Source: an uncultured bacterium
Lineage (GTDB): Bacteria; RBG-13-61-14; CAYWKU01
Assembly: GCA_964459325.1 (NCBI GenBank)
Contig: CAYWKU010000007.1
Span: forward strand, 83,422 to 147,421
Length of the DNA: 64,000 nt
Direction of reading: 5' to 3'
The position numbers were made by a program, and so were the translations under genes. Shown here in pieces: positions 10,411-60,377 of the stretch; within the stretch, counting starts at the first letter, position 1, and every line of letters begins with the position of its first letter. The notes below the pieces were generated by a model that was not told the origin of the DNA, searched no databases, and was given only the letters and a program-made list of their open reading frames with translations.

Positions 10411-10536
10411 GAAAAAAGCCCGGACAAGCCGGTCATCGGTCATTTCTCCCTCCGGATAGTATCTGCGAGTCAGGACATTATCCATTTAACCGTAACAGAT
10501 TACAACAGTATACCTCGCCCTGCTCGAAAGATACCG

Positions 10537-10862
10537 GGTACCCCACCTTGCACGCAGTGCGAGGTGGGTAGCGAAGCTACAGGGAAATGTGGTATGAAGG
10601 ATTGCGGATTATCAATCGAGCAGTCTGCTATTTAATGAAGAGGGGAAAGGCGCCGGGGTATCGGTTTCGAAGCCGTCAATATTCCCTGCCCGTCCGGGCC
10701 CACCTGGAACCTTCGGGTCAAGGTGGGGTACCCGGTATCCCCGGGTTAAAACCCGGGGCTTAAAGATAAATGTGAAACTCCCCGGCTTAAAAGCCGGGGT
10801 TTCCGAGGGGTGAGCAAAATTGATAGCCCACACAACTTGCTTGTGTGGGTGAGCGAAGCTCA
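10537..10862. repeat. Cluster of stable stem-loops in a convergent intergenic spacer, including two copies of a hairpin-plus-GCGAAGC mini-hairpin unit and three GC-stem/TTAAAA-loop hairpins
   Basis: Unit 1 at 10537-10580 (ccaccttgcacgcagtgcgaggtgg + gtagcGAAgctac); unit 2 at 10827-10862 (cccacacaaCTTGCttgtgtggg + tgagcGAAgctca); between them ccccgggTTAAAAcccgggg and ccccggcTTAAAAgccgggg. Confidence 0.6.
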
Positions 10863-11040
10863 CGGGAGACAATTCCCTCCTGCGCCTTCGGCGCCGGGCT
10901 TACGCTTACGCTTTAAGCCCGGCTACCCGCTATCGAGCACACCATAATGTGTTCAAGCCATGACAAATTTTATACTTTGCGCCTTTGCGTGATGCTTCAA
11001 ATGACTTGGGTTGGGGTTGCATTTTGCTACGGTTTGGGGG

Positions 11041-11139
11041 TGTAGAATTCGAGGGTCGATTTTCTACAACATTTTCTACAGAATTGTAGAATATTCTACA
11101 ACGTTGTAGGATATTCTACAGGTGACAATTTTCGTCACC
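11041..11139. promoter_or_regulatory. Array of TTCTACA-containing palindromes (operator- or iteron-like), including an 18-bp perfect palindrome
   Basis: At least seven TTCTACA/TGTAGAA half-sites within ~80 bp; perfect palindrome TTGTAGAATATTCTACAA (11084-11101), near-palindrome TTGTAGGATATTCTACAG (11104-11121), inverted repeat GGTGACaattttcGTCACC (11121-11139). A related GGAATATTCTACAG copy lies at 9026-9039 upstream of the GH1 gene. Confidence 0.5.
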
Positions 11140-11193
11140 CGAAGCGTCGAACACCGGCGTGTATTCCACGAGCAGGGGATGAAAAAGAGGGGC

Positions 11194-12210: not shown

Positions 12211-12354
12211 TAGGGTCTATATTTAACCCGAAAGAAGCTCAAAAGGCAAGCGGGCGTGCCGCAAGTCGAGAAAAACACAAGAAAATCGGCAATTTATCGG
12301 GCAGGCGAAATGACCTTTGTTCGCTTTATACGGCCTTGCGCAATCAAGGCGGCG

Positions 12355-12669
12355 CTAATCGGAGGATTTTTCTCCGGCGGATTTTTTCTCCGCAGGCTTC
12401 GACGTATCCTTGGCCGCCTTGTCGGAGCTTGACTCGGCGGAAGTCGAGGCTTCGCTTTCGGAATTTTTGTCTGCGGCGCCGTTTCCGCCGTTTTTTCGCG
12501 CGTAGTCGGTGGCGTACCACCCGCTGCCCTTGAGGTGGAAATTATTTAGCGAAATCAATCGCTTAACCTTGCAGCGGCAGTTGGGGCACCGCTTCAGCGG
12601 GTCGTCGCTTATCTTTTGCATGACCTCCACCACGCCGCACCTGGGGCAGTCATATTCGTAAATCGGCAT
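12355..12669 (-). CDS. FmdB-family zinc-ribbon protein with a low-complexity Ser/Ala/Lys-rich tail
   Basis: [12 protein letters not shown]...CPNCRC arrangement (two CxxC pairs) at the N-terminus; C-terminal low-complexity tail. Confidence 0.75.
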
Positions 12670-12821
12670 CTTTACATCGCCTCCACAATTTTTGATGAAA
12701 AAACACGTACCTGAGGCTCAGTCATTAAGTAATATAATCTCCCGAACCGCCCCCGTCAAGAGAGGTGTTAGCACTCAAGGGAAATGAGTGCTAAGAACAG
12801 AAAGGGTTGATAAGCGCCGAT

Positions 12822-17869: not shown

Positions 17870-17999
17870 ATTCCACTCCTCTCGAACTGCACATTTGGAT
17901 AATTAAATTATTTTGCAGCGATGGTAAAAATAACGCAAATGTCAGCTAATAAAGAGGGGCTAAATGGGACTATATGCTTACTTAAAAAAGCCTCGAGAC

Positions 18000-18224
18000 T
18001 TATTTTTTCCATTCCTTTTGAGGAATTTCGGCGTTAACCAGGATGTTGCGCAATGTTCCGAGAGGAAGGTTGCGTCCCTTATGATACGGCACGATAACCT
18101 GTAACCCTGATTGAGAATGTCGCCACTTCCGATGACTTCCTTTTTGCGATATCATTTTAAAACCGTATTTTGACAGCAGAGATTCTACTTCTTTGGCCGT
18201 CATCCTTCTTATGCCGGAGCTCAT
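18000..18224 (-). CDS. hicA: Type II toxin-antitoxin system toxin, HicA family
   Basis: 74 aa; KGSHRKWRHSQSGLQVIVPYHKGRNLPLGTLRNIL matches the HicA fold signature; overlaps the upstream antitoxin gene by 4 nt. Confidence 0.8.
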   Translation of the reverse strand: MSSGIRRMTAKEVESLLSKYGFKMISQKGSHRKWRHSQSGLQVIVPYHKGRNLPLGTLRNILVNAEIPQKEWKK

Positions 18225-18445
18225 CCAATGACGACCTCACACGTAATCGCGTCATCACTTAACTCCAGGGGAGAAGGTTCCAGATATAATGCAATTGCTT
18301 CTTTTATATTTTCCAGAGCCTCCTCTTTGCTTTCTCCCGCCGAAATACATCCCGGCAATTCCGGGCACCATACCGCCCATTCCCCTGTTTCGCTATCCCG
18401 CTCCAATATAACTCGCCATTTCATTCTCCCATTCCTGCCTTTCAT
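18221..18445 (-). CDS. hicB: Type II toxin-antitoxin system antitoxin, HicB family (UPF0150)
   Basis: 74 aa; WAVWCPELPGCISAGESKEEALENIKEAIALYLE is characteristic of HicB/UPF0150; the real start may be the internal Met (MKWRVIL) at about 18424. Confidence 0.75.
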   Translation of the reverse strand: MKGRNGRMKWRVILERDSETGEWAVWCPELPGCISAGESKEEALENIKEAIALYLEPSPLELSDDAITCEVVIG

Positions 18446-18838
18446 AAGTTCTCTTTTTTATGGTAGCCTTTACCTCATTAATTTCAAATGCATCGGCGGA
18501 GCTGTGTCCGATATTCCCGGATAAGGAAGCGGACCGACTTCACACCTTGACCGCTCCCGGGGGTTTCATGAAATATGCTCATCACCAGGGAGGTGATGGC
18601 CGTTTTCGGGTTTTTTGCCCGCCATAAGCCGCCCTGCGGTCAAGATAGGTTACCCTTAACAAGGAATTTTGGAGAGCTGTGTGGTTTTGATTGTATGGCA
18701 ATATCATTGAGACCGGATATTCTTTCTTTATAGTGGGAGTGATATTCCTCGTTACCAAATACTGTTAAGAGGTTTCCACAGGTTATTGCCTTGTGCTATC
18801 TTTTTAATTAATAATTCCATCGAAAGGAGGGTTGATTG

Positions 18839-21858: not shown

Positions 21859-24324
21859 TCATTTGTCCGAAAGCCTGAACACTCCGTCCCAGTCAGAGGG
21901 TGGTGGCTTTTCGAGGTAAAGCCGGCATCTTTCGAGGTAAGTGCGACTGGGACCGTCTTCCGGAATAAAGTTCAAAGCCGCTTCGAAACTGGAGATTGCG
22001 TCGCCCCAGTTCATCTTCCGGTAACTTACCACCCCGTCGTTGTAGGCTTTCAGCATCCGCACCCGCTTGCGGCTCAATGAACCTTTCCGGCCCATAAGCT
22101 CATATACCCTTACCGGCCGCTCCTTCCCCGCCACGGCCACCATGTCCAGGAATCTCACCTCGAAATGGTTTTTCACCTGCTTGTAGGTTTCGCGGGCAAT
22201 CATGATGTAGGTTCCGTACTGCTTGTTGGCGCCTTCGAGCCTGCTGGCCAGGTTCACCTCATCGCCCATGATGGTGTAGTTGAGCCTGCCCTCGCTGCCC
22301 ATGTTTCCCACCACCATGGGGCCGGTATTCAGCCCCATCCGGACGCGCATGTTCTTCACCAGGTCGGGCCGGTTACCTTCGCGTCGCCATTTTTCCCGAA
22401 GCGTACTCAGCGCCGCCTGCATCTCCAGGGCCGCGTTACATGCCCGGACGGCGTGGTCCTCAAAACTCAACGGCGCGCCCCAGAATGCCATGATAGCGTC
22501 CCCTTCGTACTTGTCGATGGTGCCGCCGTATTTTTCTATAACCCTGGCCATTGCCGAAAGGTACTCGTTCAATAACCCGACCAGCTGCCCTGCGTCGCCC
22601 AGCTTTTCGCTAATGGTGCTGAACTTTTCGATATCGCTGAAAAAGGCGGTAAGCTCCTTCTCCACTCCCCCGAGTTCCACCAGGGACGGGTCCTTGATAA
22701 TCTCATCCACCACGGTAGGCGCGAGATACTTGCCGAAAGTGTCCTTTATCCACGTCCTCTCGCGCTCGTGCAGTCTGGCCCTGTTGAACAGGCCGCCCGC
22801 ATAAAGGGCAACCACCGCCGACGCCGGAGCGGCTACGGGAATCCACAGACCGCCCCGAACGAAGCCTGCATACGAGCCGATTGCGACAGTCACCAGCAAC
22901 GCCGCCAGTATGGTTGCTCCCGCCGCCAGGGGCGGTCTCCAGAGCATGAATAAAATCATCGAAACCAGCCCCGCCAGAAAAACAATCCCTCCCTCGATAA
23001 TCTCCAGCCGCCATTTCCTTTGGCCGGGCATCTCAGCCATCTCGAGTAGGTCTTTGATTTTATTATCAAGAAACAGGGATAACGGAACGATAAAGTCCTT
23101 CGTGAGTATGGTGTCCAGGGTGTTGGCGTGAATTTCCAGTCCCGGAGTGTATCCCGTTTTTACGCCTTCCGCGGCGGTATCTTGGGAACTTATTTTCTGG
23201 CCGCCGAACGGGGTGGGGTATTCATCGTGGGCCAGTTGGTGAGTGTTTCCCACGAGCGCGATTTTGCCTTCTACTTTTTCGGGGTCGAAATCCCCCTTCA
23301 ATACGTCTCCAAAGGATATTCTCGGGTAAGTATCCCTCCCGCCGCGGTAGTTGATTAATATGTTTCCGTTTACGAGGGGAATTTTCAGCGCGTCCTCGTC
23401 TCCGCCCATTACAAGCTTCCAGTCGGTGCTTTGAATCAACTCTGGATGGGCCGGGTACCTGACCCTGATTGCGGTCTCCAGCGCCAGCGCTGCCCGCTTG
23501 TTCGGGTCTTCGGCCGAGCGCCCCACTATGGCGGGCATGCGCCTGACCCGAGCGTCCGGGTCTTCGATGATATTGACGGCGCCTTCGCCGAGGAGGGAGC
23601 CGAATCTCAACCCTTTAACGGCAACGTACAACTTCGTGCCCGCCGGTACGCCCTGCACGGTGAGCTCGAGGCTATCTTCATCCGCCGCCACGTCCACGTG
23701 ACCGCCCGAACCTTCTCTTACGGCGCCGGTGTCCTTGATGGGATTGAGTGAGTAAAATACCCGAAATCCGTTAATTACCCGACCGGGGCGCGGCTTCCAT
23801 CGGATGTCAGCCACGCCGTTTTCGTCCACCGTCACAATTTTTGAAGCGTCCACGACAGCCTCTTCGGTGACGCAGGGCACTTCGGTGTCCAGAAACATAT
23901 CCCTCGGCCGAACCCATCCGCCCATAGCGATGAAGCTGGAAAGTATCACATTCCCCGCGCAGGCTATTTCCCGGGCCAGTTTTTCATCTCCGGGCTTGGA
24001 AGTAGCGAAGTCCATGTCGAAAACCACCGCCATTGCGCCCGCTTCGTTGAGGGCTTCGAGAACCCGGGCGTGTTCGGCGCGGGTGATGGAGCCGATGGCC
24101 TTATCGAGGGTTTTGCGGGTGGATTCGTCTATGGTTACAAGCAGGACGTCCGAATGCGGAGCTTTTTGGCCCCGGATTAAAAAGCGCAGGTCGTAAGAAA
24201 GGCGCTCGAGGCCGTCGAAAGCGCCGGCGGCTTCCAGCGCGGTTATCGCCACAACGAGGGCAAGCCCCAGCCACAGGCCGGTCAGCCTGCCGGGAGGCTT
24301 CGAGGATTTTCCGGTATCAGCCAC
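21859..24324 (-). CDS. CHASE2 sensor domain-containing adenylate/guanylate cyclase (class III)
   Basis: N-terminal periplasmic CHASE2-like region, transmembrane helices, then cyclase catalytic domain (FFSDIEKFSTISEKL...YEGDAIMAFWGAP...RMGLNTGPMVVGNMGS...YTIMGDEVNLASRLE), C-terminal TPR-like tail. Confidence 0.8.
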   Translation of the reverse strand: MADTGKSSKPPGRLTGLWLGLALVVAITALEAAGAFDGLERLSYDLRFLIRGQKAPHSDVLLVTIDESTRKTLDKAIGSITRAEHARVLEALNEAGAMAVVFDMDFATSKPGDEKLAREIACAGNVILSSFIAMGGWVRPRDMFLDTEVPCVTEEAVVDASKIVTVDENGVADIRWKPRPGRVINGFRVFYSLNPIKDTGAVREGSGGHVDVAADEDSLELTVQGVPAGTKLYVAVKGLRFGSLLGEGAVNIIEDPDARVRRMPAIVGRSAEDPNKRAALALETAIRVRYPAHPELIQSTDWKLVMGGDEDALKIPLVNGNILINYRGGRDTYPRISFGDVLKGDFDPEKVEGKIALVGNTHQLAHDEYPTPFGGQKISSQDTAAEGVKTGYTPGLEIHANTLDTILTKDFIVPLSLFLDNKIKDLLEMAEMPGQRKWRLEIIEGGIVFLAGLVSMILFMLWRPPLAAGATILAALLVTVAIGSYAGFVRGGLWIPVAAPASAVVALYAGGLFNRARLHERERTWIKDTFGKYLAPTVVDEIIKDPSLVELGGVEKELTAFFSDIEKFSTISEKLGDAGQLVGLLNEYLSAMARVIEKYGGTIDKYEGDAIMAFWGAPLSFEDHAVRACNAALEMQAALSTLREKWRREGNRPDLVKNMRVRMGLNTGPMVVGNMGSEGRLNYTIMGDEVNLASRLEGANKQYGTYIMIARETYKQVKNHFEVRFLDMVAVAGKERPVRVYELMGRKGSLSRKRVRMLKAYNDGVVSYRKMNWGDAISSFEAALNFIPEDGPSRTYLERCRLYLEKPPPSDWDGVFRLSDK

Positions 24325-24341
24325 GGCGCCTTTAGAACCGA

Positions 24342-25832
24342 TTAGAAATCACGGTTATTCTTCCACGCCAACCGCCCGCCATCGGGTGGTGAAAGCTTCC
24401 CTTCGGTGGCTCCCACCATGGAGTCCATCAATATAATCACCCTTGCCTCGGCGAGGTAGTTGCTTTGGCGGTTTGTCATCCGGATTAGCCTGGCGACAGG
24501 GTCGGATACGATGATTCGGGCTTTTTTCTCGCCTGCGGAATCGTCGGCTTTGGTCTCCAAAGGCGCCTTACCCTGGCGGAGGGTAACCGTCGCCTCTGCT
24601 CGAAGCAGGAAAATGGGATTGGAAGGCGCGAAAAGGCTCGACCACGCGCCCATGCCCAGCGACGCCACGCGGACTTTCCTTTTTTGCCGCGCGGGGAGGG
24701 CCTTAATCCGCAACGGATTCGGCCCCAGCCGTGCGCCTTCGGGGTTTTTGCTCTTTTCAAGTGCATAAACCGCCGCGCCCCGACGTGAAAGGGCGCCGCC
24801 GGTGACCATTCCGGCGCCGTAAACCACGTTATCGTCCTTGTCGGCGATTACCGGAAACAGGGCGGGGTTAACCCCGGTGCCACGGGCGTCCACCACCAGG
24901 CCTGTGTAGTTTTCGGTTTTCTTTTCTTCCGGTTCTTCCTTCTCCTCCTCTCCCGGTTGAGGTCGAGGTTGCCGTTCTTGAGGTTCAGGAGCGGGCATCT
25001 GCCCGAAAATATCCCTGAACGCAATGGTCACGCCCTTGAGTCCCCACAGTGGCACGCGCACCGTTACATTAAATTCATCCCCTTTTCTCCGAGTATCCAC
25101 CACCTCGGCGCCCTGAACCAGCCCCCGGATGCGGTATTTCCTTTGCTTCTGTTTCTCCAGTATATTATCCATTCCCGAGTCGGGGTCGTAGTTGATGCCC
25201 TTTACGATTTCCATGGCCACGGCATAAGCGTCCACCCTGGCGGCGCGTTTGGCCATTTCTTCCGCATTCGGTTGTTCATTCGGTATTTTTCCCGTCCCCG
25301 TGGCTTCCAGGAACCCCTCCTCCCAGTTCACCTTACCTTTCGGGAAAGGTTGAATCGCCGCGGGGTAGCCTGTAGTTTCATCGGGTGGAGCGGGAGGCAG
25401 CTCCTTTTCGAGACCGGCGGGAATAACCACGTCCGCTTCAATTCTTACCACGTACAAGTCCCCCTGCCGCTCGTCGGTGACAACCTTTACGTTTTTCACC
25501 CTCCCCTGCAAAGTCGCGGTTACAGTGCGGCGTTTTTCGTCGGGAGCGGCCACCAGGTCGACAAACGCGCCCAGGGCCCTTTCCACCGCGTCGCGCTTTG
25601 CGAGGGCAAAAGCGGCCTTGCGGGACAGGCTCTCGCGTTTTCGCTCTATGGGCATTACCGCCGAGCCGGTGGTTCTTACGACGCGGGCGTCCTTTGAAAC
25701 GGCCTGCGCCTCGGCGGTGGAGGCGGTTGTTTCTTCCGACGCGGAAGAGTTGCCTTTATCGGGTGAAGAAACGATATACGCCGGAAAAATCACGACCACA
25801 GCAATTATCAGGCATATTATTTTCGATTTCAT
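24342..25832 (-). CDS. Secreted hypothetical protein with two internally repeated domains (possibly LPP20/FlgT-like)
   Basis: Start chosen at internal Met (MKSKIICLIIAVVVIFPAYIV signal peptide); two related segments (AAFALAKRDAVERALGAF... and AKRAARVDAYAVAMEIVKGI...). Domain identity is uncertain. Confidence 0.45.
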   Translation of the reverse strand: MKSKIICLIIAVVVIFPAYIVSSPDKGNSSASEETTASTAEAQAVSKDARVVRTTGSAVMPIERKRESLSRKAAFALAKRDAVERALGAFVDLVAAPDEKRRTVTATLQGRVKNVKVVTDERQGDLYVVRIEADVVIPAGLEKELPPAPPDETTGYPAAIQPFPKGKVNWEEGFLEATGTGKIPNEQPNAEEMAKRAARVDAYAVAMEIVKGINYDPDSGMDNILEKQKQRKYRIRGLVQGAEVVDTRRKGDEFNVTVRVPLWGLKGVTIAFRDIFGQMPAPEPQERQPRPQPGEEEKEEPEEKKTENYTGLVVDARGTGVNPALFPVIADKDDNVVYGAGMVTGGALSRRGAAVYALEKSKNPEGARLGPNPLRIKALPARQKRKVRVASLGMGAWSSLFAPSNPIFLLRAEATVTLRQGKAPLETKADDSAGEKKARIIVSDPVARLIRMTNRQSNYLAEARVIILMDSMVGATEGKLSPPDGGRLAWKNNRDF

Positions 25833-26002
25833 AATGTCCCCTCGATTTTTAAATGCGGCTGATACGGGTATACCGCTACCCGGGGTACAATTCCCCCTCA
25901 ATTCACCATAAGGACGGGTAAAAGATACCGGCTTTGGAGCATAATTTCAATATTCAGGTGTTAATGTTCTCCGGTGGGTAAATTCAATAGCCAAATGGAA
26001 AA

Positions 26003-27406
26003 TTACGGGCTCGGCTCTGCTTCCTCGTCTTTTTCCGAGAGCTTGCTCTGTTTTCTGTAGAGCGTGCGGCGGTTGATGCCCAGAATTTTGGCCGCCAGCT
26101 CCTTTTTGCCGCCCGTTTTTTTAAGAACTTCCCTGATGTATGTGTCTTCCAGCTCCTCCAGGGTCATGTCTTCGTTGACCGCTTTTTCCACCAGTTTCGG
26201 GGAATCCTCGGACGGCTCGAAAGCCAGCTCATCCGGGCCTATCACATCGGACTGGCAGAGCACCAGCGACCTTTCGATGAGGTTTTCCAGCTCTCTTACG
26301 TTGCCCTGCCAGTCGTGAGTCATCAACTTGGCCATGGCTTCCCGTGAGAGCCTTTTCAAGGAAGTATTCATTTGTTCGGAGTACTTGGTCAAAAAGTGTT
26401 CCGCCAGTAGAGGAATATCCTCCCTTCTTTCCCGAAGCGGAGGCAGGTGAATGGGAATGACGTTGAGCCTGTAATACAGGTCTTCGCGAAAGTTGCCTTT
26501 GGATATTTCTTCCCTCAGATTTTTCTGCGTGGCGGCGATTATCCTGACGTCGATAGTACGCGGCTCGCTGCCGCCCACCGGCCTGACTTCCTTGTCTTCG
26601 ATAACCCTCAGTATCTTCGCCTGCAGCGCCTGCCCCATTTCAGCGATTTCGTCCAGGAACACGGTGCCGTTCTGGGCATCCAGAAGCATTCCCCGGTGGC
26701 TTGCCACGGCGCCGGTGAACGCTCCCTTGACGTGCCCGAAAAGCTCGCTTTCCAGCAGTCCGTCAGGTATGGCGGCGCAGTTTATGGGTATGAACGGTTT
26801 ATCGTTTCGGGGGCCGTTGTAATGCACGGCCTTTGCCACCAGCTCCTTGCCGGTTCCCGATTCGCCGAGCACCAGCACGTTGCTGGATGTGGGCGAGACG
26901 CGGGATATGATTTCGAACACCCTCTTCATCGAAGGGCTTTTGCCTATTATGTTGCCGTAGCGGTACCGCTGGTGAACTTCATTGCGAAGTTGGATATTCT
27001 CGCGCTTGAGCCGGTACAACTGGGCCGCGTTGCGAACCCTGTTCCGTATTTCGTCGTTGTTGGTAAAAGGTTTGCTGAAGAAGTCGTAAGCGCCCTTCCG
27101 CATGGTCTCGACCGCCAGGTCTATCGACCCGAAGGCGGTAATCATGATAACGGCGCTTTCCGGGGATTTTTCGCGGGCGTAGGAAAGAACTTCCATGCCA
27201 TCCACATCGGGCATTTTTATGTCCGCGATAACTACGGGATAACTCTTTTCGGAAATTTTTTCTATTGCCGCACGGCCGCCGGTGACAACTTCCACCTCGT
27301 GCCCGTCCTTTTCGAGGATGTCCTTGAGCAGCGACCCCATTTCAACTTCGTCATCGACGACGAGAACGCTGGCGCTATGCTCCCGGTTATGTGCCTCTTC
27401 TTCCAT
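26003..27406 (-). CDS. Sigma-54-dependent response regulator (NtrC/Fis family: REC + AAA+ sigma-54 activator + HTH)
   Basis: Receiver domain (VLVVDDE...ADIKMPDVDG), Walker A GESGTGKE, GAFTGA sigma-54 interaction motif, C-terminal Fis-type HTH. Confidence 0.9.
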   Translation of the reverse strand: MEEEAHNREHSASVLVVDDEVEMGSLLKDILEKDGHEVEVVTGGRAAIEKISEKSYPVVIADIKMPDVDGMEVLSYAREKSPESAVIMITAFGSIDLAVETMRKGAYDFFSKPFTNNDEIRNRVRNAAQLYRLKRENIQLRNEVHQRYRYGNIIGKSPSMKRVFEIISRVSPTSSNVLVLGESGTGKELVAKAVHYNGPRNDKPFIPINCAAIPDGLLESELFGHVKGAFTGAVASHRGMLLDAQNGTVFLDEIAEMGQALQAKILRVIEDKEVRPVGGSEPRTIDVRIIAATQKNLREEISKGNFREDLYYRLNVIPIHLPPLRERREDIPLLAEHFLTKYSEQMNTSLKRLSREAMAKLMTHDWQGNVRELENLIERSLVLCQSDVIGPDELAFEPSEDSPKLVEKAVNEDMTLEELEDTYIREVLKKTGGKKELAAKILGINRRTLYRKQSKLSEKDEEAEPSP

Positions 27407-27409
27407 TTG

Positions 27410-29695
27410 TCAGGCCGATTTTTCCTCCAGTTTTGTCTGGATAACGGGCATGGTTATATTAAAGCTCGTACCCTTTCCGGAGTCGCTGTGCGCTTCGATA
27501 TTGCCCCCGTGGTCCCGGACTATCTTGGATACTATCGCCAACCCGAGGCCGGTGCCCTGGCCGGAGTCTTTGGTCGAGAAGAAAGGCTCGAATATCCGGG
27601 ACAGGTGTTCCTGCGAAATACCGGCGCCGGTATCCGAAATCGTTACCCGCACGGCATTATGGTCGATGGGCTTCATGTCCAGTCCCAATCTGCCTCCTTC
27701 GGGCATCGCCTGAATGGAGTTGAGGATAAGGTTCAAAAATACCTGCTGGAGCTGGTTATAGTCGGCTTCCACCGGCGGCAGGTCGGGCGACACGCTGAAA
27801 TCCACGTTTACACCGGTCTTTTCGAGCTGAGTTTCCAGGAGGTTCAATACTCCCTCCATCACCTCGGCCATCTCCAGTTTCGCGTAGTGCACCTTCTGGG
27901 GCCTCGAGAACTTGAGCAGGTTGTCGATGAGCTTGGTCATTCTTTCGGTCTGGTGAATGATTATCTGCAGCGATTCCTTCCGGGGGTCGCCTTCCGGCAG
28001 GTCGGAGAGCAGATACTCGGCCCTTCCGGAAACTATGTTGAGCGGAGTTCCCATCTCGTGAGCCAGCCCGGCGGTAAGCTGTCCGATTGCCGCCAGCTTT
28101 TCCGCGTGGATAACCTGTTGCTCCAGCTCCTTTTGTTCGGTAACATCCCGCAGGATGACGCTGTATCCGCGGGCTTTGCCCAGCTTGTCCCTCAGCAGCG
28201 TTATGGTCAGGTTGACCAGCACATTTTCGCCGTCCCGGGTAACCATTTCCGTCTCGTAGTTGGTCATGCTTTCCTTCTTTTCCACTACCCGGGAGATGTG
28301 CCCCACTTCCTCTTCGGCGGTGGAGTTGTCCGGCCACAGCGCATGGAAGGGGCGGTCGAGCACTTCCTTGGGGCGATAGCCGAAGACGTTTTCCGCGCCC
28401 ATGTTCCAGCTTACTATGTGGTAATCCACGTCCAGGCCGATGATGGCGTCGGCGCTTCCGTAAAGGACGGTTTCCAGAAACTCCTTGGTCTGCTCTTCTT
28501 CCGTAACGTCCCGTATGCTGCATATACTCTGCATGGTGCCCGGCACAAGTCCTACTGTGATGCTCGCCCTTCGCTCCTCGCCCTTCTTGTTGACGAAGGT
28601 GAACTCGTAGCTGGAGGGCGCTCCCACCGGGTTTATTCTTCGCCGCTCATGGTAACGCCCCATTCTTTCGCGCTCGGGCTCCGCCACCATCTCGAGAAAA
28701 CTCATCCTGCCTTCTATTTCCTCGCGGGTGAAACCGCTTATCTGGCAAAAGCGGCGGTTGACCCGGGATATGGTCTTGTCCGGCTCCAATACGCATACCG
28801 CGGTTCCGGAGTGCTCAAATAGAATCCTGTAATACTCCTCACTCTGGCGCCTTTCTTCGGCTTCCTGGAACTTGTGGGTAACATCCTGGATAATCTCGAT
28901 TACCTGCTCGACCTGCCCGCTTTCGTTCAATATGGGAAAGGCGGTAACCTCGTAAAACTCCCTGTATCTCCCGCGGGTGGTGGACACCATCCCCCGCTCC
29001 ATCACCCGGTTTCTTATGGCCCACGAGGCGGGGCAGTTTTCGCACACTCCTTCCGGCACTCCTCGAACCTGGCCGCATGTCCAACCCTTCACTTCACCCA
29101 CTTCCCTCACGAAATCCTCCCGCGCGGCGCGGTTGGCCCACAGCACCCTTCTCTTGTTGTCCAGGATTATCAGGTGTATTCCGAGGTTTCCGAGAGCTTT
29201 TCCGGCGCGCTCGACGTCGCTCATGCGGCGCCTCAGATGCCGCAGCTCTTCATTCTGCCGAACGGTTTTGACGGATTCTTCCTTCAGGCGGGCCTGTTCC
29301 AGGCGCGAATGGCTCTTGGCCAGGGCAATTTCAAAGGCCGAGTATATTTCGTCCAGGTCCCTCACCGCCTTGGCCATCGCGGCCCCGTTATCGGAAGCAA
29401 GCTCAAAAATCTGCTCCTGGACGGTTCTTTTACCCAACCGGAACGACTTGATAAGGTCGGGCAGGCGCAAATTCAATCCCACCGCGCGATGGGCCACTTC
29501 TTCCCCATACTCGGAAGCCTCTTCCGACTTGCCTTCCTTAAGCACGCGGACTGCCAGGCCCAATTGGTCCTGGGTTATCTCGTGGAGTTTCTTGCGCGAC
29601 TCGGCGCCGCCTTCTATGCCCTCGCGCGTAAGACCCTTACTCCACCGTTGAGTAATTTTATCCAGCCGCCCTTCAAGTTCTTTATGTAATTCCAT
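27410..29695 (-). CDS. Multi-PAS sensor histidine kinase (HisKA + HATPase_c), apparently cytoplasmic
   Basis: ATG at 29695 (ORF track begins at GTG 29704); H-box LAHEMGTPLN; ATPase G-boxes (DTGAGI, GQGTGLGLAIV); several PAS-like segments; cysteine cluster CGQVRGVPEGVCENC; no clear transmembrane helix. Confidence 0.85.
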   Translation of the reverse strand: MELHKELEGRLDKITQRWSKGLTREGIEGGAESRKKLHEITQDQLGLAVRVLKEGKSEEASEYGEEVAHRAVGLNLRLPDLIKSFRLGKRTVQEQIFELASDNGAAMAKAVRDLDEIYSAFEIALAKSHSRLEQARLKEESVKTVRQNEELRHLRRRMSDVERAGKALGNLGIHLIILDNKRRVLWANRAAREDFVREVGEVKGWTCGQVRGVPEGVCENCPASWAIRNRVMERGMVSTTRGRYREFYEVTAFPILNESGQVEQVIEIIQDVTHKFQEAEERRQSEEYYRILFEHSGTAVCVLEPDKTISRVNRRFCQISGFTREEIEGRMSFLEMVAEPERERMGRYHERRRINPVGAPSSYEFTFVNKKGEERRASITVGLVPGTMQSICSIRDVTEEEQTKEFLETVLYGSADAIIGLDVDYHIVSWNMGAENVFGYRPKEVLDRPFHALWPDNSTAEEEVGHISRVVEKKESMTNYETEMVTRDGENVLVNLTITLLRDKLGKARGYSVILRDVTEQKELEQQVIHAEKLAAIGQLTAGLAHEMGTPLNIVSGRAEYLLSDLPEGDPRKESLQIIIHQTERMTKLIDNLLKFSRPQKVHYAKLEMAEVMEGVLNLLETQLEKTGVNVDFSVSPDLPPVEADYNQLQQVFLNLILNSIQAMPEGGRLGLDMKPIDHNAVRVTISDTGAGISQEHLSRIFEPFFSTKDSGQGTGLGLAIVSKIVRDHGGNIEAHSDSGKGTSFNITMPVIQTKLEEKSA

Positions 29696-29875
29696 ATTCA
29701 CCACTAATTACCTTTTATGTTACATTTTGTCTCAAAATTGGAAAGAGTTCACAATTTTCATGTATAGTTTATCATCCACTGCTAATTATTTCAACGAGAA
29801 TTGGATGATTTTTCGTTGAGGTTCTTAACAATTGTCTCGTAACTACCCGAATGAACAATAGAAATTTGTTTTGAA

Positions 29876-30955
29876 CTATTTTCCCCCACCCAACACAACT
29901 TCTTGGAGGATTGAAGGGTAATGCCATACATCGAACAACACGCTGGCTCCTACGAAGCAGGAGTGAGTACAGGTGCAGCCTTTCCGGGATATACTTTTTC
30001 GGATGCTTTGAGCCTTTTCTCCGCGCCATATCGCGCGAAGATTGTATGATTCCTTCCTTAAGTCCCCCATCGGCTCCTCCAGCTCTTCGCAGGGGTAAAC
30101 CACCCCTTCCGGGTCTATGTAACCCACCACCCGGCCCGCCCTGCATGAGAAACGTTTCCCCTTCATCACCTCCAGCTCCAGCTTTCTGGCCCTGATTTTC
30201 GCACCCCGCAGCCATCTCCGGAAAGGCCCGCGATAAAACGGAAAATTCGACCAGTAAGTCTCAAGTTTCCCGAGCAGGTCCTCATATTCGTCAACCGAAG
30301 GCGGAGCGAGCGCCTTATCGGGAGCTTCTCCCCTGAAGAGCTCGAAGCCGTGAAAATCGGCATCCGGCATTCGAGACAACACAAATTCCATAAGCTTGCT
30401 CATGTTGTCCATGTTTCGATTCATGAGCACAGTGTTGAGGTTCAACGAAAGCCTCGGCTGCTCCCGCTTTTCTTTCGCCAAAACATCATAAGTGTCGAGC
30501 AGCCTATCGAAAGCGCCCTCAACGGCCCTGATTCGGTCGTGAACCTCACCCACCCCGTCAACGGCAAGGCTCACCGCTATCCGGGCTTTCGGGCATAATT
30601 TCAGAGTTTTCCGCACACAGTCCAGCGTTCTCTCCGGGAGCAGCCCGTTTGTGGGTATTGTAATCCGCCGCAATCCGCAATTTTGATAGTAACTCCGAGC
30701 CACCTCGGGCAAATCGTCGCGCATGACCGGTTCCCCGCCGGTAAACAAAAGCCATAACAGCGGCCCGGCGTTTCCGGCAACCAGTCGATGCTCATCGAGC
30801 GACAGCTCTTGGGTCGCCGTGTTGAGTTTCCGGTAGTTGAAGCAGGTTATGCACCGGGCGTTGCACCGCCACGTGGCGCCCAATATCAGGTAAACCGGGG
30901 GCAGGCTTTTCATGCCCAAAAGGTGTCCCGCCCCGACCGCCGCCGGTCTTATCAT
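29876..30955 (-). CDS. Radical SAM protein with C-terminal SPASM-like cysteine-rich domain
   Basis: CX3CX2C motif (CNARCITC) near the N-terminus; C-terminal auxiliary cysteines (FSCRAGR...YPCEELE...GCTCTHSCF); overlaps the upstream GT2 gene by 4 nt. Confidence 0.8.
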   Translation of the reverse strand: MIRPAAVGAGHLLGMKSLPPVYLILGATWRCNARCITCFNYRKLNTATQELSLDEHRLVAGNAGPLLWLLFTGGEPVMRDDLPEVARSYYQNCGLRRITIPTNGLLPERTLDCVRKTLKLCPKARIAVSLAVDGVGEVHDRIRAVEGAFDRLLDTYDVLAKEKREQPRLSLNLNTVLMNRNMDNMSKLMEFVLSRMPDADFHGFELFRGEAPDKALAPPSVDEYEDLLGKLETYWSNFPFYRGPFRRWLRGAKIRARKLELEVMKGKRFSCRAGRVVGYIDPEGVVYPCEELEEPMGDLRKESYNLRAIWRGEKAQSIRKSISRKGCTCTHSCFVGASVLFDVWHYPSILQEVVLGGGK

Positions 30956-38255: not shown

Positions 38256-39850
38256 CGCCGACCTCCCCGCGATGCTTCGAGCGCCTTACGGGCCTGCATG
38301 ATGGCTCTTCGTATTTGCGCATCGGGCGGGCTCAACCTGGAAGCCTCCTTGAAATTATCCAGCGCCTTTACGAATCTCCCCATCTTCAAATGTGCCAACC
38401 CCGCGTTTTCAAGCGGCTCCGCCCATCCCTGCCTGAGCTCGGAGGCTTTGAGGAAATAAAAAGCAGCGCCCCGGTAATCCTTGAAGCGGAAATGCAGCTT
38501 GCCGAGCGCATTGAAAGCGTTGGCCTGCTCGTAATCGGTAGGAGCGCCTATCTCTACCGCCCGGTTAAGGTGAGGCCAGGCGGAAACGTATCGCAGCTCG
38601 TCCTTGTACGCCAGGCCCAGGTCGTATCGGGCGCGGAACTTATCCGGCGATACCCGGACGCTTCGGCGGTGAACGGTTATCTTTGACGACCAGGTGGAAG
38701 CCACTTCGACGGCAGCCATGAGAAAAAGAGAGCATACCACGACAACTAAGGCAGGCGCCGCCTTTCGCTTGAAGGATGACGCCTCATTCCCGAAAAGCTC
38801 CCCCCCACCGAAAGCGATTATGCCCACTAACCCGACGGCGGGCATGTAAACCCTGTGCAAAAACGCAAGGTCCATGAGGGGAATTACGCCGGATTCCGGC
38901 CCGAGAGCCACCGGCATCCATATCATCAGAAACAGGGCCGGGCGGTTTTTGCGCAGCTTGTACGTCAAAATCCCCCAAACCGCTATTAACCCAACGCCCG
39001 AGATAATTACTTTCGCATCGAGCAGGCTTGTCCTCAGCACGGGATTCTGCTCAAGGGCCAAGCCCGTCGGCCACAGGAATTTTGCGATGTATCCCGGTAT
39101 GACTGTCAATTGGGTAAGGAAATACTCGTAAGCGCCGGGCAACTCCGATGAAGGGCCGAGGTACACCAGATGCCCCGAGCGCAAGACGGCGTAAATTACG
39201 AAAATTCCTCCCGCCGGAAGAACGGCTTTTATTCTTTCCCGTCCCTTCCCGTACAGAAAAGCGAGCACACATACCATTATCGGCGCCACCGCGCCGCTTT
39301 CCTTGCTCAATAGAGCGCCTACGCAAGCCAGCATCGAAATCCATAAGTACAGGTTCCTCCCCTTCCGGAGGTGCTCCAGGTATGCCAGCGCAGCTCCCAC
39401 CGTGAACATGGTGGCCAGCACCGCCGACCGGGCGGATATGTAAAACACTGAAAAGTTGATAAGCGGATTGAGGCAGAAAATCGCACTCGCCGCCAGCGCG
39501 ATTGCATCCGGGTTTTCGCGTTCGGCGAAAAGCGCCCTTACCAAGAGGAAAACCAGCAGCGAGGTTATCACGTGAAGCACGCCGTTTACCGCCTCGAAAG
39601 CCGGCGCATCGAAACCCGCGGCCTGAACGTTGGACCAGTTAAGAAGAACGGTTATCGCCCGGAAAGGACTTTGCAAAATAACGGAAACCGGAGAGCCCAC
39701 CAGCGCGGCGTTTTCGAGTATGGAAGGGTGGTCGTCCAGCACGAAAACGCCGCCCGATGCCAGGTGCACTATAAGGCCCGCAACCAGGGCGGCCAAAAGC
39801 GCGAGGTATGCAAATTTATCCCGAGGCGTCCTCACCGGCGCTTCCCGCAC
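38252..39850 (-). CDS. Polytopic membrane protein with C-terminal TPR repeats (TMTC/DUF1736-like, GT-C-type)
   Basis: About 10 N-terminal transmembrane helices followed by TPR-like repeats (YDLGLAYKDELRY, AFNALGKLHFRFKDYRGAAFYFLKASEL, ENAGLAHLKMGRFVKALDNFKEA). Confidence 0.6.
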   Translation of the reverse strand: MREAPVRTPRDKFAYLALLAALVAGLIVHLASGGVFVLDDHPSILENAALVGSPVSVILQSPFRAITVLLNWSNVQAAGFDAPAFEAVNGVLHVITSLLVFLLVRALFAERENPDAIALAASAIFCLNPLINFSVFYISARSAVLATMFTVGAALAYLEHLRKGRNLYLWISMLACVGALLSKESGAVAPIMVCVLAFLYGKGRERIKAVLPAGGIFVIYAVLRSGHLVYLGPSSELPGAYEYFLTQLTVIPGYIAKFLWPTGLALEQNPVLRTSLLDAKVIISGVGLIAVWGILTYKLRKNRPALFLMIWMPVALGPESGVIPLMDLAFLHRVYMPAVGLVGIIAFGGGELFGNEASSFKRKAAPALVVVVCSLFLMAAVEVASTWSSKITVHRRSVRVSPDKFRARYDLGLAYKDELRYVSAWPHLNRAVEIGAPTDYEQANAFNALGKLHFRFKDYRGAAFYFLKASELRQGWAEPLENAGLAHLKMGRFVKALDNFKEASRLSPPDAQIRRAIMQARKALEASRGGRR

Positions 39851-40181
39851 TTTTTTCGGCTTCCAATATGGCGATTGTCTGTGACAGGGATTTTACCTGG
39901 TCGGTCATCCGGGACATCCGCACCGAGAAGTGAATGTTAATTAACGCGAGGAACAACAGGGCAAACAGAAAAACGGTGGTGGAACTGGAGACCGCGCCTA
40001 TCAGGTGAGTCAGCCAGACCTGAAGGTCGTACCATGCGGCCAGCACAATTACGCCCGCTCCCACCGCCAGCCACAGTATGCTGAACTCCTCCTTCAGCTT
40101 CCTCCGGCGCACCAGCTCGACAATAGCCACCAGCAGCATCACTGCTACCGCCAGCGCAAATATCCTTTGTCTGGGCGTCAT
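39816..40181 (-). CDS. Small membrane protein, DUF2304-like (commonly paired with polyprenyl-phosphate GT2 genes)
   Basis: Start taken at internal Met (MTPRQRIFALAVAVMLLVAIV); 2-3 transmembrane helices; immediately downstream of an ArnC-like GT2. Confidence 0.5.
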   Translation of the reverse strand: MTPRQRIFALAVAVMLLVAIVELVRRRKLKEEFSILWLAVGAGVIVLAAWYDLQVWLTHLIGAVSSSTTVFLFALLFLALINIHFSVRMSRMTDQVKSLSQTIAILEAEKSAGSAGEDASG

Positions 40182-40194
40182 ATTCCACCTCCTT

Positions 40195-52377: not shown

Positions 52378-53303
52378 CCGGTCTCGTCCTCGACCCGCTC
52401 GAACCGCAGCAGGCTTATCTGCTCGGCCACCAGCCCCAGCAGAAACACTATCACGCCGGTCACCAACAGCAGCAGGGCGAGGTTTGTGAACCGGTGCCAG
52501 AGAATGAAGGTGTAAAGGTAATAGAGCACTCCGGCCAGAACGAAAAATATGCTTATGGGAAGAAACACCCTCATCGGCGCAAACAAAGTCGCCACTCTCA
52601 AGAGAATGATGAGAAACCTCAATCCGTCCCGGAAAGGGCGAATCTTGCTCTGACCGATTCGGATGTCGAAAGTTAAAGGTGCGAAGTCCACGCTGTACCC
52701 GGCCCTTATCATGGACAGGGTGATGGTGGTGGGATAGCTGAAGGAGTTGGGCAAAAGATGCAGAAAGCCCCGGGCCACTTTGCGGCGCATGACCCGGAAA
52801 CCGCTGGTCAGGTCATATATACGCCTTCCGGCAATGTAGCCTGCGAAGGAGTTCATCGCCTTGTTGTAGAGTTTCCTGCCGCGCGTCTGCACCGTGGCGT
52901 CGTCGCGGGCGCCGACAATCATGTCGTATCTTTCAATCCGCTCCACCAGTTTGGGTATGGCCTCGGGCGGGTGCTGGCCGTCGCCGTCCATGAGTAACAC
53001 GAACTCCCGGTTAGCATGGCGAATGCCGGTTTTGACCGCCGCTCCGTTGCCTTTATTGTAGGGGTGTTTTATCAAGCGGATGTCGGCGTCTTCGAAAAGG
53101 GATACCGTGCTATCGGAGGAGCCGTCGTCCACCACGATTATCTCGGCCTCCGGCCCGACGACTTCCCTCACCCGCCGGATAACGCTGCCGATGTTTCCCT
53201 CCTCGTTGAAAACGGGCATCACGACGCTGAGCTTCTTATAGTCGAAACGACTTTTTTCGGGGGAGGTTTTTGCTTCGTTCACTTTTTCGTTTTTCTCATC
53301 CAT
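52374..53303 (-). CDS. GT2 polyprenyl-phosphate sugar synthase-like glycosyltransferase
   Basis: Start taken at internal Met (MDEKNEKV...), alternative at ~53219; LSVVMPVFNEE, IIVVDDGSSD, MDGDGQHPP motifs; C-terminal two-helix anchor. Confidence 0.8.
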   Translation of the reverse strand: MDEKNEKVNEAKTSPEKSRFDYKKLSVVMPVFNEEGNIGSVIRRVREVVGPEAEIIVVDDGSSDSTVSLFEDADIRLIKHPYNKGNGAAVKTGIRHANREFVLLMDGDGQHPPEAIPKLVERIERYDMIVGARDDATVQTRGRKLYNKAMNSFAGYIAGRRIYDLTSGFRVMRRKVARGFLHLLPNSFSYPTTITLSMIRAGYSVDFAPLTFDIRIGQSKIRPFRDGLRFLIILLRVATLFAPMRVFLPISIFFVLAGVLYYLYTFILWHRFTNLALLLLVTGVIVFLLGLVAEQISLLRFERVEDETG

Positions 53304-54667
53304 CCGGCCAGCTCCATTCCACGAGAGAGTAGATTGACGGCCCCCCCGGCTCCACCGGCCCGGGCAAGCCTTGAAACGACGTAAGAAGGCCTGGCGTAAA
53401 AACTGAAATGTGCGGCTCTCAGCGCCTTCCTCAACTTTTGCGGCGTCCAATATTCGTCCATCACTGCCGGTCGGGCCAGGTCGGCGTCGAAGGGGTTCAT
53501 GGCGTCGGTCATTCCGAGCCAACCTTTTTTTAGAGCCTCGTCGTAAAGCGGGGTTCCCTCCACCGGCGACAAAACGCTGAACTGGGCCCAAGTAACCCCC
53601 CACCTTGCCGCGAACCGGGCTGTTTCTTTAACGTGCTCCAGTCTTTCACCCGGTATTCCCACCAGAAAGTAAGCCAAAACGTCCATTCCCGCTTGCCGGG
53701 TCATGGTTATAGCCTTCCCGATATCGGACGAGGAAGTGCCCTTTCGCAGGAACCGCAGGCTTTTCTCGTGGATGCTTTCGATGCCGTAGGAAACTATTCG
53801 ACACCCCGCCCGGCTCATCCAATCAAGCATCTCCGGGTACACGTCATCTACACGGGCCTCGCACTTCCATCGGATGTTAAGTCCTTCTTCGATGATGCGT
53901 CGGCAGATTTCAATGACCCGCTCGGCGTCCAGCGTGAAAAGGTCGTCATAAATTATAACGGAACGTACGCCCGAATCGCAAGCAATTTGCCGCAGCTCCT
54001 CCAGCACCCTGTCGGCCGAATGAAGCCTCGGTGCGGAGCCAAAAACGCTTTTGTCGCAGAAGATGCAGGCATGAGGACAACCGCGACTCGTGAAAAGCGT
54101 GGTCGCCGCACCCGGCCCGAGAGGGGGATAAGAATACCGGGAGTGCTCCAGGAGTCCGCGGGCGGGATACGGGAGGCCGTCGAGGTCACCGGAAGGAGAC
54201 GCAGGCGGAGTGTGTCCTTCAGGTGTCACCACTCCGTGTAATGCGAAAAGGTCGCCGTTGTTTTGTAACGTTTCCAGCAGGTTTGCAATAACGCCCTCCC
54301 CTTCGCCCAGGACGACAGCGTCGGCGGGAAAATCGCCTTCGGTTGTGAAGAATTCCGCCCCCCGCATGGTAACATGAGGGCCCCCGATGACGACGGTTTT
54401 CCCCGCGTTTTTCGATATTTGTGCGGCACGGCAGGTTAAGTCCCATGTCGGGGTCATGCCGGTAAGCGCCGCGACCTTCGCGTTTGAAGACCGAACGCGG
54501 TTTTCAAATTCCTTCCAGCTCAGGCCGAGTGCCGGAGCATCGACCAGCTCGGCATCATGGCCCGCCTCCATGCAAACCCCTGCCAGATAAAGCAGTCCAA
54601 GAGGAGGCACAACGAAAGGCGGCTTGCGGCCTTCGCGGGCCGGAGGCACTGCAAAAAGAACTTCCAT
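53279..54667 (-). CDS. B12-binding domain-containing radical SAM enzyme
   Basis: N-terminal B12-binding-like domain (PLGLLYLAG, VVIGGPHVT), radical SAM motif SRGCPHACIFC. Confidence 0.8.
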   Translation of the reverse strand: MEVLFAVPPAREGRKPPFVVPPLGLLYLAGVCMEAGHDAELVDAPALGLSWKEFENRVRSSNAKVAALTGMTPTWDLTCRAAQISKNAGKTVVIGGPHVTMRGAEFFTTEGDFPADAVVLGEGEGVIANLLETLQNNGDLFALHGVVTPEGHTPPASPSGDLDGLPYPARGLLEHSRYSYPPLGPGAATTLFTSRGCPHACIFCDKSVFGSAPRLHSADRVLEELRQIACDSGVRSVIIYDDLFTLDAERVIEICRRIIEEGLNIRWKCEARVDDVYPEMLDWMSRAGCRIVSYGIESIHEKSLRFLRKGTSSSDIGKAITMTRQAGMDVLAYFLVGIPGERLEHVKETARFAARWGVTWAQFSVLSPVEGTPLYDEALKKGWLGMTDAMNPFDADLARPAVMDEYWTPQKLRKALRAAHFSFYARPSYVVSRLARAGGAGGAVNLLSRGMELAGWMRKTKK

Positions 54668-54802
54668 CTCAAGTCAAACATGGTAGAACAGGCGGCGTCC
54701 GTCGGCAATTGAAGAAGGAGGCTCACCCTCTTAATTTATCCCGGCATCTTGTTATTTCTTTCGCAGACATCCCCCAAAATTCATTTGAAAAAAAATACAT
54801 GC

Positions 54803-56317: not shown

Positions 56318-56825
56318 ACACGGAACTCCTCAATCGTGTTCGATGAAGCCTCCAAGCACTCATTTTGAACGCGAAAAGTTGCCCATCCGATTGGATTATG
56401 CCGGGCGAGCCGAAAGCGGGTATTCTTTAAAGAACACCTGTTATCCAAAATGGCCGGCAATTGCAATTTTCTCGCGATTCCGAATAAAAACTTTTTTGTA
56501 AACAGAATTGTCAACTTCTTAAATCAAATAGTTCTTCTTGTTTTTTAATGATAACCGGGACATGCCGTGAATTCAACTTTCCGTAAATCGTTTGATTTCT
56601 CTATTCGAGTTCCGCCACAATTGCAGTGATTTTTTCAGTCCCCCGGCAATCAGCCGAAAAAGAAAAAAACAAAATTCCAGCCTATGTCGGTATTTGCCGG
56701 TGAAGTATATGATTGCTATACTGACAACAGTTAAAAGGTTACCACGTGTCTTTCAGACGGAAGAGGTGGAACAAAACTAATGTTTACCAATCCAATAATC
56801 AGATAAGCGAAACAATCCTTTTCTC

Positions 56826-58589: not shown

Positions 58590-58668
58590 ACAAGAGGCCG
58601 TTGCAGAATTATGATTTTTCGTTTGGGATGTGTTGACCTTCATCGTGCCGAAAAAGAACCCCGAATGG

Positions 58669-58717
58669 ACAAGGGGCTTCAGCCCCTTGAATTTCAAGGG
58701 GTTAAAACCCCTTGTCT
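58669..58717. terminator. Tandem GC-stem hairpins between convergent genes (candidate bidirectional terminator; member of the GGGG-TTAAAA-CCCC hairpin family)
   Basis: GACAAGGGGC-ttca-GCCCCTTG followed by CAAGGGG-ttaaaa-CCCCTTGTC; further hairpins and T-runs up to ~58870. Confidence 0.5.
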
Positions 58718-58901
58718 GGAAAAGACATTCCCGGGGAGCTACAGAAAAAAAGCCTTCTCTCCCCCTGAAGCCTGTTTTGCAACGGTCTCAACAAATAAAA
58801 AACTCCCGGCCGTCTCTTTCGGCCCGCCCTTTTTTCGTGATTTATTTTAGAAAAACAGGCTGCGGCTTTTTGTTCGGGAGGGCGAAATGCCGGGGTTTAT
58901 T

Positions 58902-60269: not shown

Positions 60270-60377
60270 GGCAAAACCTTACCACATATAAAATAGCTCA
60301 CAAAATCAGCCGGTAAATTGCAAGCATGCAGCCGGCCGGTTAACGGGCCACTCGCCGGCCAAAACGCCGTATTCGGT

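Follow-up and report, generated by a model that had tools for sequence, protein, structure and literature searches.

A sigma-54-type kinase-regulator pair beside a glycosylation gene cluster in an uncultured bacterium

Does a two-component system that lies directly behind a large glycosylation gene cluster also govern that cluster, and what can be said of the signal it reads and the genes it serves? These questions are raised by a 64-kb stretch of DNA from an uncultured bacterium (contig CAYWKU010000007.1, positions 83,422 to 147,421; the whole stretch is referred to here as the window), in which genes for a sensor histidine kinase and an NtrC-family response regulator follow the last gene of such a cluster on the minus strand. 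An earlier description of this DNA, called here the original prediction, held that the pair may regulate the cluster through sigma-54 promoters. As discussed below, the sigma-54-type pair is intact and genuine, and its input region is interesting, though not unique; the guess of a neighbouring cluster driven by sigma-54 is without support in the sequence. On balance, we consider it probable that the locus encodes a coupled unit of a soluble sensor kinase and an NtrC-family sigma-54 activator whose targets lie elsewhere. The result is mainly a clean annotation, and the best leads to the biology of the pair are its conserved adjacency to the cluster and an operator-like motif that precedes it.

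A coupled kinase and sigma-54 activator

Both genes were found intact where the original prediction had placed them, on one strand (Table 1). Only 3 nt separate the stop codon of the kinase gene from the start codon of the regulator gene (TGA-CAA-ATG), and the two form one translationally coupled unit. The pair had been described as lying about 180 bp downstream of the last cluster gene, and its position stands, but the distance depends on where the kinase begins. Counted from an ATG at 29695 to the stop of the cluster gene at 29876 the gap is indeed 180 bp, while from a GTG at 29704 it is 171 bp. The GTG is the more likely start codon, since a protein of 764 amino acids is obtained both for orthologue P0001, which is 88% identical, and from the gene call for an identical contig.

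The regulator has the layout of an NtrC-family activator, with a receiver domain, a sigma-54 AAA+ domain that covers the full Pfam profile, an AAA_lid_14 domain (also from Pfam), and a Fis-type helix-turn-helix. Its receiver retains the acidic pocket (D18-D19) and the phospho-acceptor D62 (in VVIADIKMP), and the Walker A motif (GESGTGKE at 181), GAFTGA loop (at 228) and Walker B motif (VFLDE at 249) are all intact. The closest solved structures are Aquifex NtrC-family proteins, namely 4l4u (9e-105), 3dzd and 1ny5. The catalytic boxes of the kinase transmitter are equally intact (H box HEMGTP, N box NLILNS, G1 box DTGAG, F box FEPF and G2 box GQGTGL), the histidine of the H box being His549, or His546 if residues are counted from the ATG. 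No rpoN gene occurs among the genes of the window, which spans 64 kb of a 153-kb contig.

In transmitter chemistry the pair resembles the NtrB/NtrC class, which includes AtoS/AtoC, ZraS/ZraR and the Aquifex proteins NtrC1 and NtrC4, and the regulator shares with that class the whole order of receiver, GAFTGA-bearing AAA+ domain and Fis-type helix-turn-helix. Indeed, the best NCBIfam matches of the regulator are AtoC (445 bits, cut-off 714) and NtrC (430, cut-off 559), followed by the PEP-CTERM-box regulator (398, cut-off 503) and ZraR (385, cut-off 760), while those of the kinase are AtoS (301, cut-off 646) and ZraS (215, cut-off 479). Neither protein reached the cut-off of any equivalog model for these systems (AtoS/AtoC, NtrB/NtrC, ZraS/ZraR and the PEP-CTERM-box regulator), so the pair is not an orthologue of any named system. 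It also departs from the class in the input region of the kinase, which combines a globin-like domain with three PAS domains, and in that no target promoter was found for it here.

Close relatives of the pair are few. Among 5.8 billion protein clusters, nine full-length clusters of kinase orthologues were recovered at 56-88% identity, and there is then a steep drop to generic PAS kinases, none above 33% identity. Only one kinase orthologue was present among 185,579 species-representative genomes. The TldD protein encoded in the window shares no more than about 60% identity with named sequences, which come from MAGs labelled Nitrospirae, Deltaproteobacteria or Betaproteobacteria. At one of the related loci (L085, 12299-13624) the orthologous regulator is called at 441 amino acids and has no HTH_8 domain, whereas the near-identical L086 encodes the full 468 amino acids; the difference in length is probably one of assembly or a frameshift.

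A globin-like domain and a cysteine-triad PAS domain

The kinase had been described as cytoplasmic, with several PAS-like regions. The absence of a transmembrane segment was borne out: the highest 19-residue Kyte-Doolittle mean along the protein is 1.02, and the usual threshold for a membrane helix is 1.6. Three PAS domains were likewise located, here termed PAS-A to PAS-C, with the TIGR00229 sensory_box model matching residues 283-406 in the region of PAS-B and PAS-C. The part that precedes them is of a different kind, however. The first 148 or so residues gave no significant Pfam match with the protein of the window, yet when modelled together with ten orthologues they folded into a globin-like bundle with high confidence (pLDDT 91.7), and the model joins this bundle to PAS-A through a helix of about 65 residues. 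A PAS-like assignment for the N-terminal region was rejected on the strength of this model, which shows a helical domain of the sensor-globin type instead.

The bundle resembles the RsbR-type sensor globins, that is, the Moorella stressosome N-domain (3zta), B. subtilis RsbR (2bnl) and pXO2-61 (3pmc), in its globin-like fold and in the long linker helix, at a sequence identity of only 11-13%. In those proteins the domain is joined to STAS; here its fusion partners are PAS domains and a histidine kinase. A haem-binding globin would have a proximal histidine as ligand, and no histidine is conserved in this domain among the orthologues. The kinase N-terminus is thus predicted to be a non-haem sensor globin, a feature that the original prediction had missed. 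Sequence and profile searches of solved structures with the N-terminal region and with the cysteine-bearing PAS domain described next returned only generic PAS and LOV domains among their best matches.

The second notable part of the input region is PAS-A, which carries the cysteine cluster pointed out in the original prediction. The cluster is real, but its spacing is CX10CX2C (C210, C221 and C224) and not the CX8CX2C given there. In the model, PAS-A adopts a PAS fold with strands at residues 173-187 and 233-271; Foldseek matches it to the PAS domains of LOV proteins, NifL and DosP, and the three cysteines sit in a helical insert between the second and third strands. All three are unchanged in each of the ten orthologues (56-88% identity).

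The triad extends far beyond these relatives. When residues 155-290 were used as the query against 1.84 billion representative proteins, 4,315 proteins matched at E <=0.001, and the pattern C-X8-13-C-X2-C was present in 244 of the 330 PAS-domain matches found in the best 150 of these 4,315. In these matches a proline usually comes next, and a single protein often has several tandem copies. An alignment of 25 such PAS domains, only 19-30% identical to one another, has just five invariant columns, three of which are the triad cysteines. With this degree of conservation, both among orthologues and across 25 distant domains, the triad cannot be put down to chance. It is the hallmark of a very large PAS subfamily and not a peculiarity of this kinase. 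Since the triad PAS is extremely common in environmental genomes, one biochemical characterisation would serve to annotate thousands of sensors.

What might the triad do? When a profile of the triad PAS was compared with solved structures, its first cysteine aligned with the flavin-adduct cysteine in the GRNCRFLQ motif of LOV domains, which would place the triad in the PAS cofactor pocket. The same profile search found no triad-PAS member among solved structures in the 60 best of its 119 matches; a chain of the kinase NreB was also absent from those 60, and the structure set may not hold one.

Two characterised PAS domains with three cysteines offer a precedent. In the sigma-54 activator OrpR of Desulfovibrio vulgaris, the PAS residues C52, C61 and C65 hold a [4Fe-4S] cluster used in redox sensing, for which all three cysteines are required (PMC8359166). 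In Bacillus licheniformis NreB, the PAS residues C63, C66 and C78 hold a [2Fe-2S] cluster that senses sulfide (PMC13478379). In its main text, a recent study that classifies PAS domains globally refers to iron-sulfur (Fe-S) binding for the NreB type only and gives no cofactor for the cysteine-triad PAS (PMC10468136).

The likeness to each protein is partial. OrpR, like the pair described here, feeds a three-cysteine PAS into a sigma-54 output in an organism whose gene content is of the anaerobe type; OrpR, however, is a one-component activator with a CX8CX3C motif, while here the PAS domain is on a separate kinase with CX10CX2C, the motifs being compared by spacing only. NreB is, as here, a cytoplasmic PAS kinase, and its activity is governed by an Fe-S cluster bound to three cysteines of the helical region of the PAS domain, but the order of its motif is reversed (CX2CX11C, or CX2CX11CX2C with a fourth cysteine). 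The partner of NreB is a NarL-type regulator and not a sigma-54 activator. Because the spacing in the window matches neither protein, Fe-S binding is suggested by analogy and not by membership in either group.

Nonetheless, since the three-cysteine PAS domains of OrpR and NreB both bind Fe-S clusters, a redox or metal role is reasonable, and the location predicted for the triad in the cofactor pocket is in keeping with the suggestion of a redox or metal sensing site made in the original prediction. It is plausible that the domain binds an Fe-S cluster or metal, or that it senses through its thiols. The triad sequence is just as compatible with a zinc site or with a CXXC thiol-disulfide switch.

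Promoters, gene order and the adjacent cluster

The cluster itself answers to its earlier description as a glycosylation cluster. It encodes many GT2 and GT4 transferases, ArnT/PMT-like proteins, LPG_synthase_TM proteins, a methyltransferase, an epimerase and several B12-radical-SAM enzymes, and runs without a gap from 54667 to 29876. A 344-bp apparent gap at 39851-40194, the only one in this run, was considered as an internal operon start and ruled out because it is occupied by a small DUF2304 gene. The orthologous clusters recovered from metagenomes (L091, L092 and L093) have as their first gene the counterpart of that at 53279-54667.

If the regulator directly activated this cluster from one or more sigma-54 promoters, envelope glycosylation would be tied to the kinase signal. 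There are reasons to take this possibility seriously. In six of seven lineages, which span 56-88% identity in the kinase, the pair comes after the same cluster genes, while its downstream neighbours vary. Moreover, sigma-54 regulators commonly control genes for the cell exterior and exopolysaccharides, as do DVU0110 and DVUA0057 of Desulfovibrio vulgaris (PMC4641369). Like DVU0110, DVUA0057 and the PEP-CTERM-box regulators (TIGR02915), which are associated with cell-exterior polysaccharide loci, the regulator is of the NtrC type, and TIGR02915 is its third-best NCBIfam match. That said, the score of this match is below the cut-off, and the polysaccharide systems, unlike the one described here, have identifiable sigma-54 target promoters.

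Sigma-54 promoters were sought with a weight matrix for the -24/-12 elements, built from the published consensus and calibrated on three real promoters, which scored 12.1-13.9. Besides the window, the search took in seven related loci, each to about 10 kb either side of the pair (about 20 kb per locus). In the window, the strict consensus with up to two mismatches was matched 15 times against 24.5 expected, with no match in an intergenic region, and the 25 matrix matches scoring at least 9 (26.3 in shuffled sequence) all fell inside coding regions. The matrix scan of loci L001-L005 gave the same picture.

On both strands of all 15 intergenic regions of the window (5.7 kb in total), the best matrix score was 7.7, and a relaxed scan for GG-N10-GC in every gap found nothing above 8 of the 11 consensus positions. 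The intergenic regions on either side of the pair did no better, with best scores of -2.5 upstream of the kinase and 1.0 downstream of the regulator (minus strand). No element was present at the places singled out in the original prediction, near 54700, 56320 and 61940-62340, where the best scores were 1.2 (54668-54802), 5.6 (56318-56825) and 5.7 (61938-62268). Matches that recurred at the same position across the seven loci were also considered and set aside, as they were confined to the coding stretches for AKILR and LVAKAVH in the kinase and regulator. In short, no -24/-12 target promoter for the regulator was found in the window or in the seven related loci.

The start of the cluster points the same way. 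Upstream of the conserved start, no site in any of four genomes scored 5 or more, and three of the four have sigma-70-like hexamers at that place (TTGCCG-17-TACCAT, TTGCCA-17-TATACT and TTGACC-17-TCTAAT), so that the cluster appears to start from a sigma-70-type promoter. With the continuity of the cluster and the separation of the pair from it in one lineage (L004, see below), these results make direct activation unlikely, and direct sigma-54 control of the adjacent cluster is not supported by the searches described here. Because no -24/-12 elements were found, which is the very finding that the original prediction had named as counting against it, its claim of cluster control fails in the window.

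How, then, should the conserved position of the pair be understood? The adjacency of cluster and pair is kept in six of seven lineages, with differences at both edges. The pair directly follows the radical-SAM/SPASM gene in the window (and the identical contig L001), in L085/L086 and in L089; in the more distant lineages L003, L087 and L002, an enoyl-CoA hydratase gene lies between the two. On the other side, the first group has a FlgT_N-like lipoprotein and a CHASE2 cyclase as downstream neighbours, while L002, L003 and L087 have multihaem cytochromes there. In the seventh lineage (L004/L005/L006, 73% identity) the pair sits away from the cluster, with unrelated genes on both sides. Hidden homology between the L004 neighbours and the downstream genes of the window was tested, and no homology was found. 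Since the link to the cluster persisted while the genes on the far side of the pair were rearranged, there is moderate evidence that the adjacency reflects a functional tie, or at least co-transcription.

A different account would have the link between pair and cluster be one of shared descent in a narrow clade, with the regulon distant and unrelated and the triad serving as a structural zinc site or a feature that stabilises the fold. Thousands of proteins contain the triad PAS, often more than once, which fits a generic module; no sigma-54 promoter was found nearby; only about ten related genomes are known, so the gene order could simply be inherited; and in L004 the pair has kept its own promoter and an operator-like motif (see below) away from the cluster. 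Against this stand the survival of the adjacency through downstream rearrangement and through gain or loss of the enoyl-CoA hydratase gene at the upstream junction, the predicted position of the triad in a cofactor pocket and not at the surface or a dimer position, and the fact that both characterised three-cysteine PAS domains are sensors. Taken together, we regard this account as doubtful.

The promoter of the pair is of the sigma-70 type as far as can be judged, with TTGAAA-17-TAAACT on the minus strand upstream of the kinase (29794..29766). The minus strand showed no terminator-like site in the interval that separates kinase and cluster. The ribosome-binding site of the kinase is immediately preceded by an operator-like 15-mer, GAGACAAAATGTAAC, whose family pattern is GNGACAAWWTGTNAC. 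In all seven lineages there is one such motif per locus, always ahead of the first gene of the (enoyl-CoA hydratase)-kinase-regulator unit, be it the kinase (four lineages) or the enoyl-CoA hydratase (three). The version in the window is shared with L085, while L004 has GGGACAAAATGTAAC, L089 has GGGACAAAAAGAGAC and L003 has GTGACAAAATGTCAC; in L002 and L087 the motif, GTGACAATTTGTCAC, is a perfect 15-bp palindrome. In these last two loci it begins about 7 nt past a TATAAT box and would thus overlap the likely transcript start.

The motif was also considered as a hairpin, but the versions in the window and L085 cannot pair, and the existence of these less symmetric versions argues for a DNA site that is bound by protein. 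Its dyad layout resembles the dimer sites of NtrC-class regulators, which commonly repress their own sigma-70 promoters. A search for further copies that might serve as activator sites found none beyond chance expectation, either in the window or at the related loci. Our preferred interpretation is that the regulator may autoregulate its unit through this motif, which provides a concrete DNA probe for the real targets of the regulator. Beside this motif, a second promoter-like stretch, GTTGACATATTCATCA, is conserved between the enoyl-CoA hydratase and kinase genes of L002 (9893-10006), L003 (9877-10006) and L087 (9902-10006), and the kinase may have two promoters in these lineages.

To return to the coupled unit with targets elsewhere, its operation could be pictured as follows. 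The triad PAS would hold an Fe-S cluster, a metal ion or a redox-active CXXC thiol pair and would report the redox or metal state of the cytoplasm, with the globin-like domain supplying a second input. This signal would set the autophosphorylation of His549, from which the phosphoryl group would pass to Asp62 of the regulator; the phosphorylated regulator would then assemble and activate sigma-54 RNA polymerase. Binding of the regulator, or of another factor, to the conserved palindrome would place the unit under autoregulation. As no sigma-54 promoter was found in the window or next to the pair in the related genomes examined and the cluster start appears to be of the sigma-70 type, any control of the cluster would be indirect, would act through a promoter outside the regions seen, or would follow from read-through that transcribes cluster and pair together.

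Several points weigh against this reading. That the pair so firmly keeps its place beside the cluster, in six of seven lineages, speaks for a closer functional tie than this analysis brings out. The matrix follows the published consensus, and an uncultured lineage could use a divergent sigma-54 promoter; the target search, moreover, was limited to 64 kb of the genome and about 20 kb at each of seven loci. The putative operator may be bound by a factor other than this regulator. Finally, the spacing of the triad differs from that of both characterised Fe-S PAS domains, and a structural zinc site would look alike.

A bolder proposal, in which PAS domains of the CX(9-12)CX2C(P) type are general redox sensors that bind Fe-S or metal and the one here couples redox state, via the sigma-54 activator and a GTGACAA-N-TTGTCAC operator, to envelope remodelling by the adjacent 25-kb cluster, strikes us as improbable.

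Neighbouring genes and minor features

The features of the locus are collected in Table 1. The intergenic region downstream of the regulator has a sigma-70-like site, TTGAAA-17-TATCTT, on the minus strand at 25950..25922.

Table 1. Positions of the kinase-regulator pair, its domains and nearby features in the window
Feature	Position	Strand	Basis or remark
Cytoplasmic sensor histidine kinase, 764 amino acids	27410..29704	-	Pfam PAS x3, HisKA, HATPase_c
Predicted N-terminal non-haem sensor-globin domain (RsbR N-domain type)	29396..29704	-	
Long linker helix	29186-29386	-	after globin domain
PAS-A, carrier of the cysteine triad	28883..29179	-	Pfam PAS_4 3.7e-9 on isolated segment; model
Cysteine triad C210-X10-C221-X2-C224, CGQVRGVPEGVCENC	29033..29077	-	translation
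PAS-B (about 28478-28849) and PAS-C (about 28130-28480)	28130..28849	-	Pfam PAS_8, PAS_3, PAS, PAS_9, PAS_4
Transmitter: HisKA (27896-28084) and HATPase_c (27443-27763)	27443..28084	-	Pfam 6e-15, 9.5e-28
NtrC-family sigma-54 activator response regulator, 467 amino acids	26003..27406	-	Pfam, motifs
Receiver domain (REC)	27035-27367	-	Pfam Response_reg 4e-27
AAA+ domain	26447-26950	-	Pfam Sigma54_activat 3e-69, full 168-position profile
HTH_8 (Fis-type helix-turn-helix)	26051-26164	-	Pfam 6.7e-12, residues 415-452
Conserved operator-like 15-mer GAGACAAAATGTAAC	29719..29733	-	just 5' of kinase ribosome-binding site
Intergenic region upstream of kinase, AT-rich, with sigma-70-like promoter	29705..29875	-	promoter scan
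Intergenic region, regulator to FlgT_N-like lipoprotein gene; sigma-70-like site, no -24/-12 element	25833..26002	-	
Radical SAM/SPASM protein, final glycosylation-cluster gene, directly before the pair	29876..30955	-	Pfam Radical_SAM 3e-10, SPASM 7e-8
Small DUF2304 membrane-protein gene	39816-40181	-	Pfam 3.9e-23

Downstream of the regulator, on the same strand, lie the genes for the FlgT_N-like lipoprotein (496 amino acids) and the CHASE2 adenylate/guanylate cyclase (821 amino acids), which together occupy 21859-25832 of the window. This lipoprotein-cyclase pair is kept in L085/L086 and in L089, where three inserted genes precede it. At a further locus, L100 (18401-20509), genes for a sigma-54 regulator and a kinase (41% and 34% identity, respectively) lie on the opposite strand about 8 kb from a homologous GT2 gene; the locus is otherwise unrelated.

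Ahead of the conserved cluster start, a block at 54000-62300 has a low GC content (45-49%, vs about 57% elsewhere). Its genes include three of the B12-radical-SAM type on the minus strand (54803-56317, 58902-60269 and 60378-61937) and one encoding a PMT_2 protein on the plus strand (56826-58589). None of the orthologous clusters L091, L092 and L093, whose first gene is the counterpart of that at 53279-54667, has this block, which suggests that it extends the cluster as an accessory or acquired part.

No match was found when the window was scanned against Rfam. Three large regions (611-882 bp), at 10411-11193, 12211-12821 and 17870-18751, hold neither an open reading frame (ORF) of at least 200 amino acids nor an Rfam match. 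Finally, two long ORFs lie antisense to the kinase and regulator genes on the plus strand, at 26447-28822 (791 amino acids) and 28874-29689 (271 amino acids). They were considered as real genes and, being without a Pfam match, were treated as shadow ORFs; they are most likely shadows of GC-rich coding sequence.

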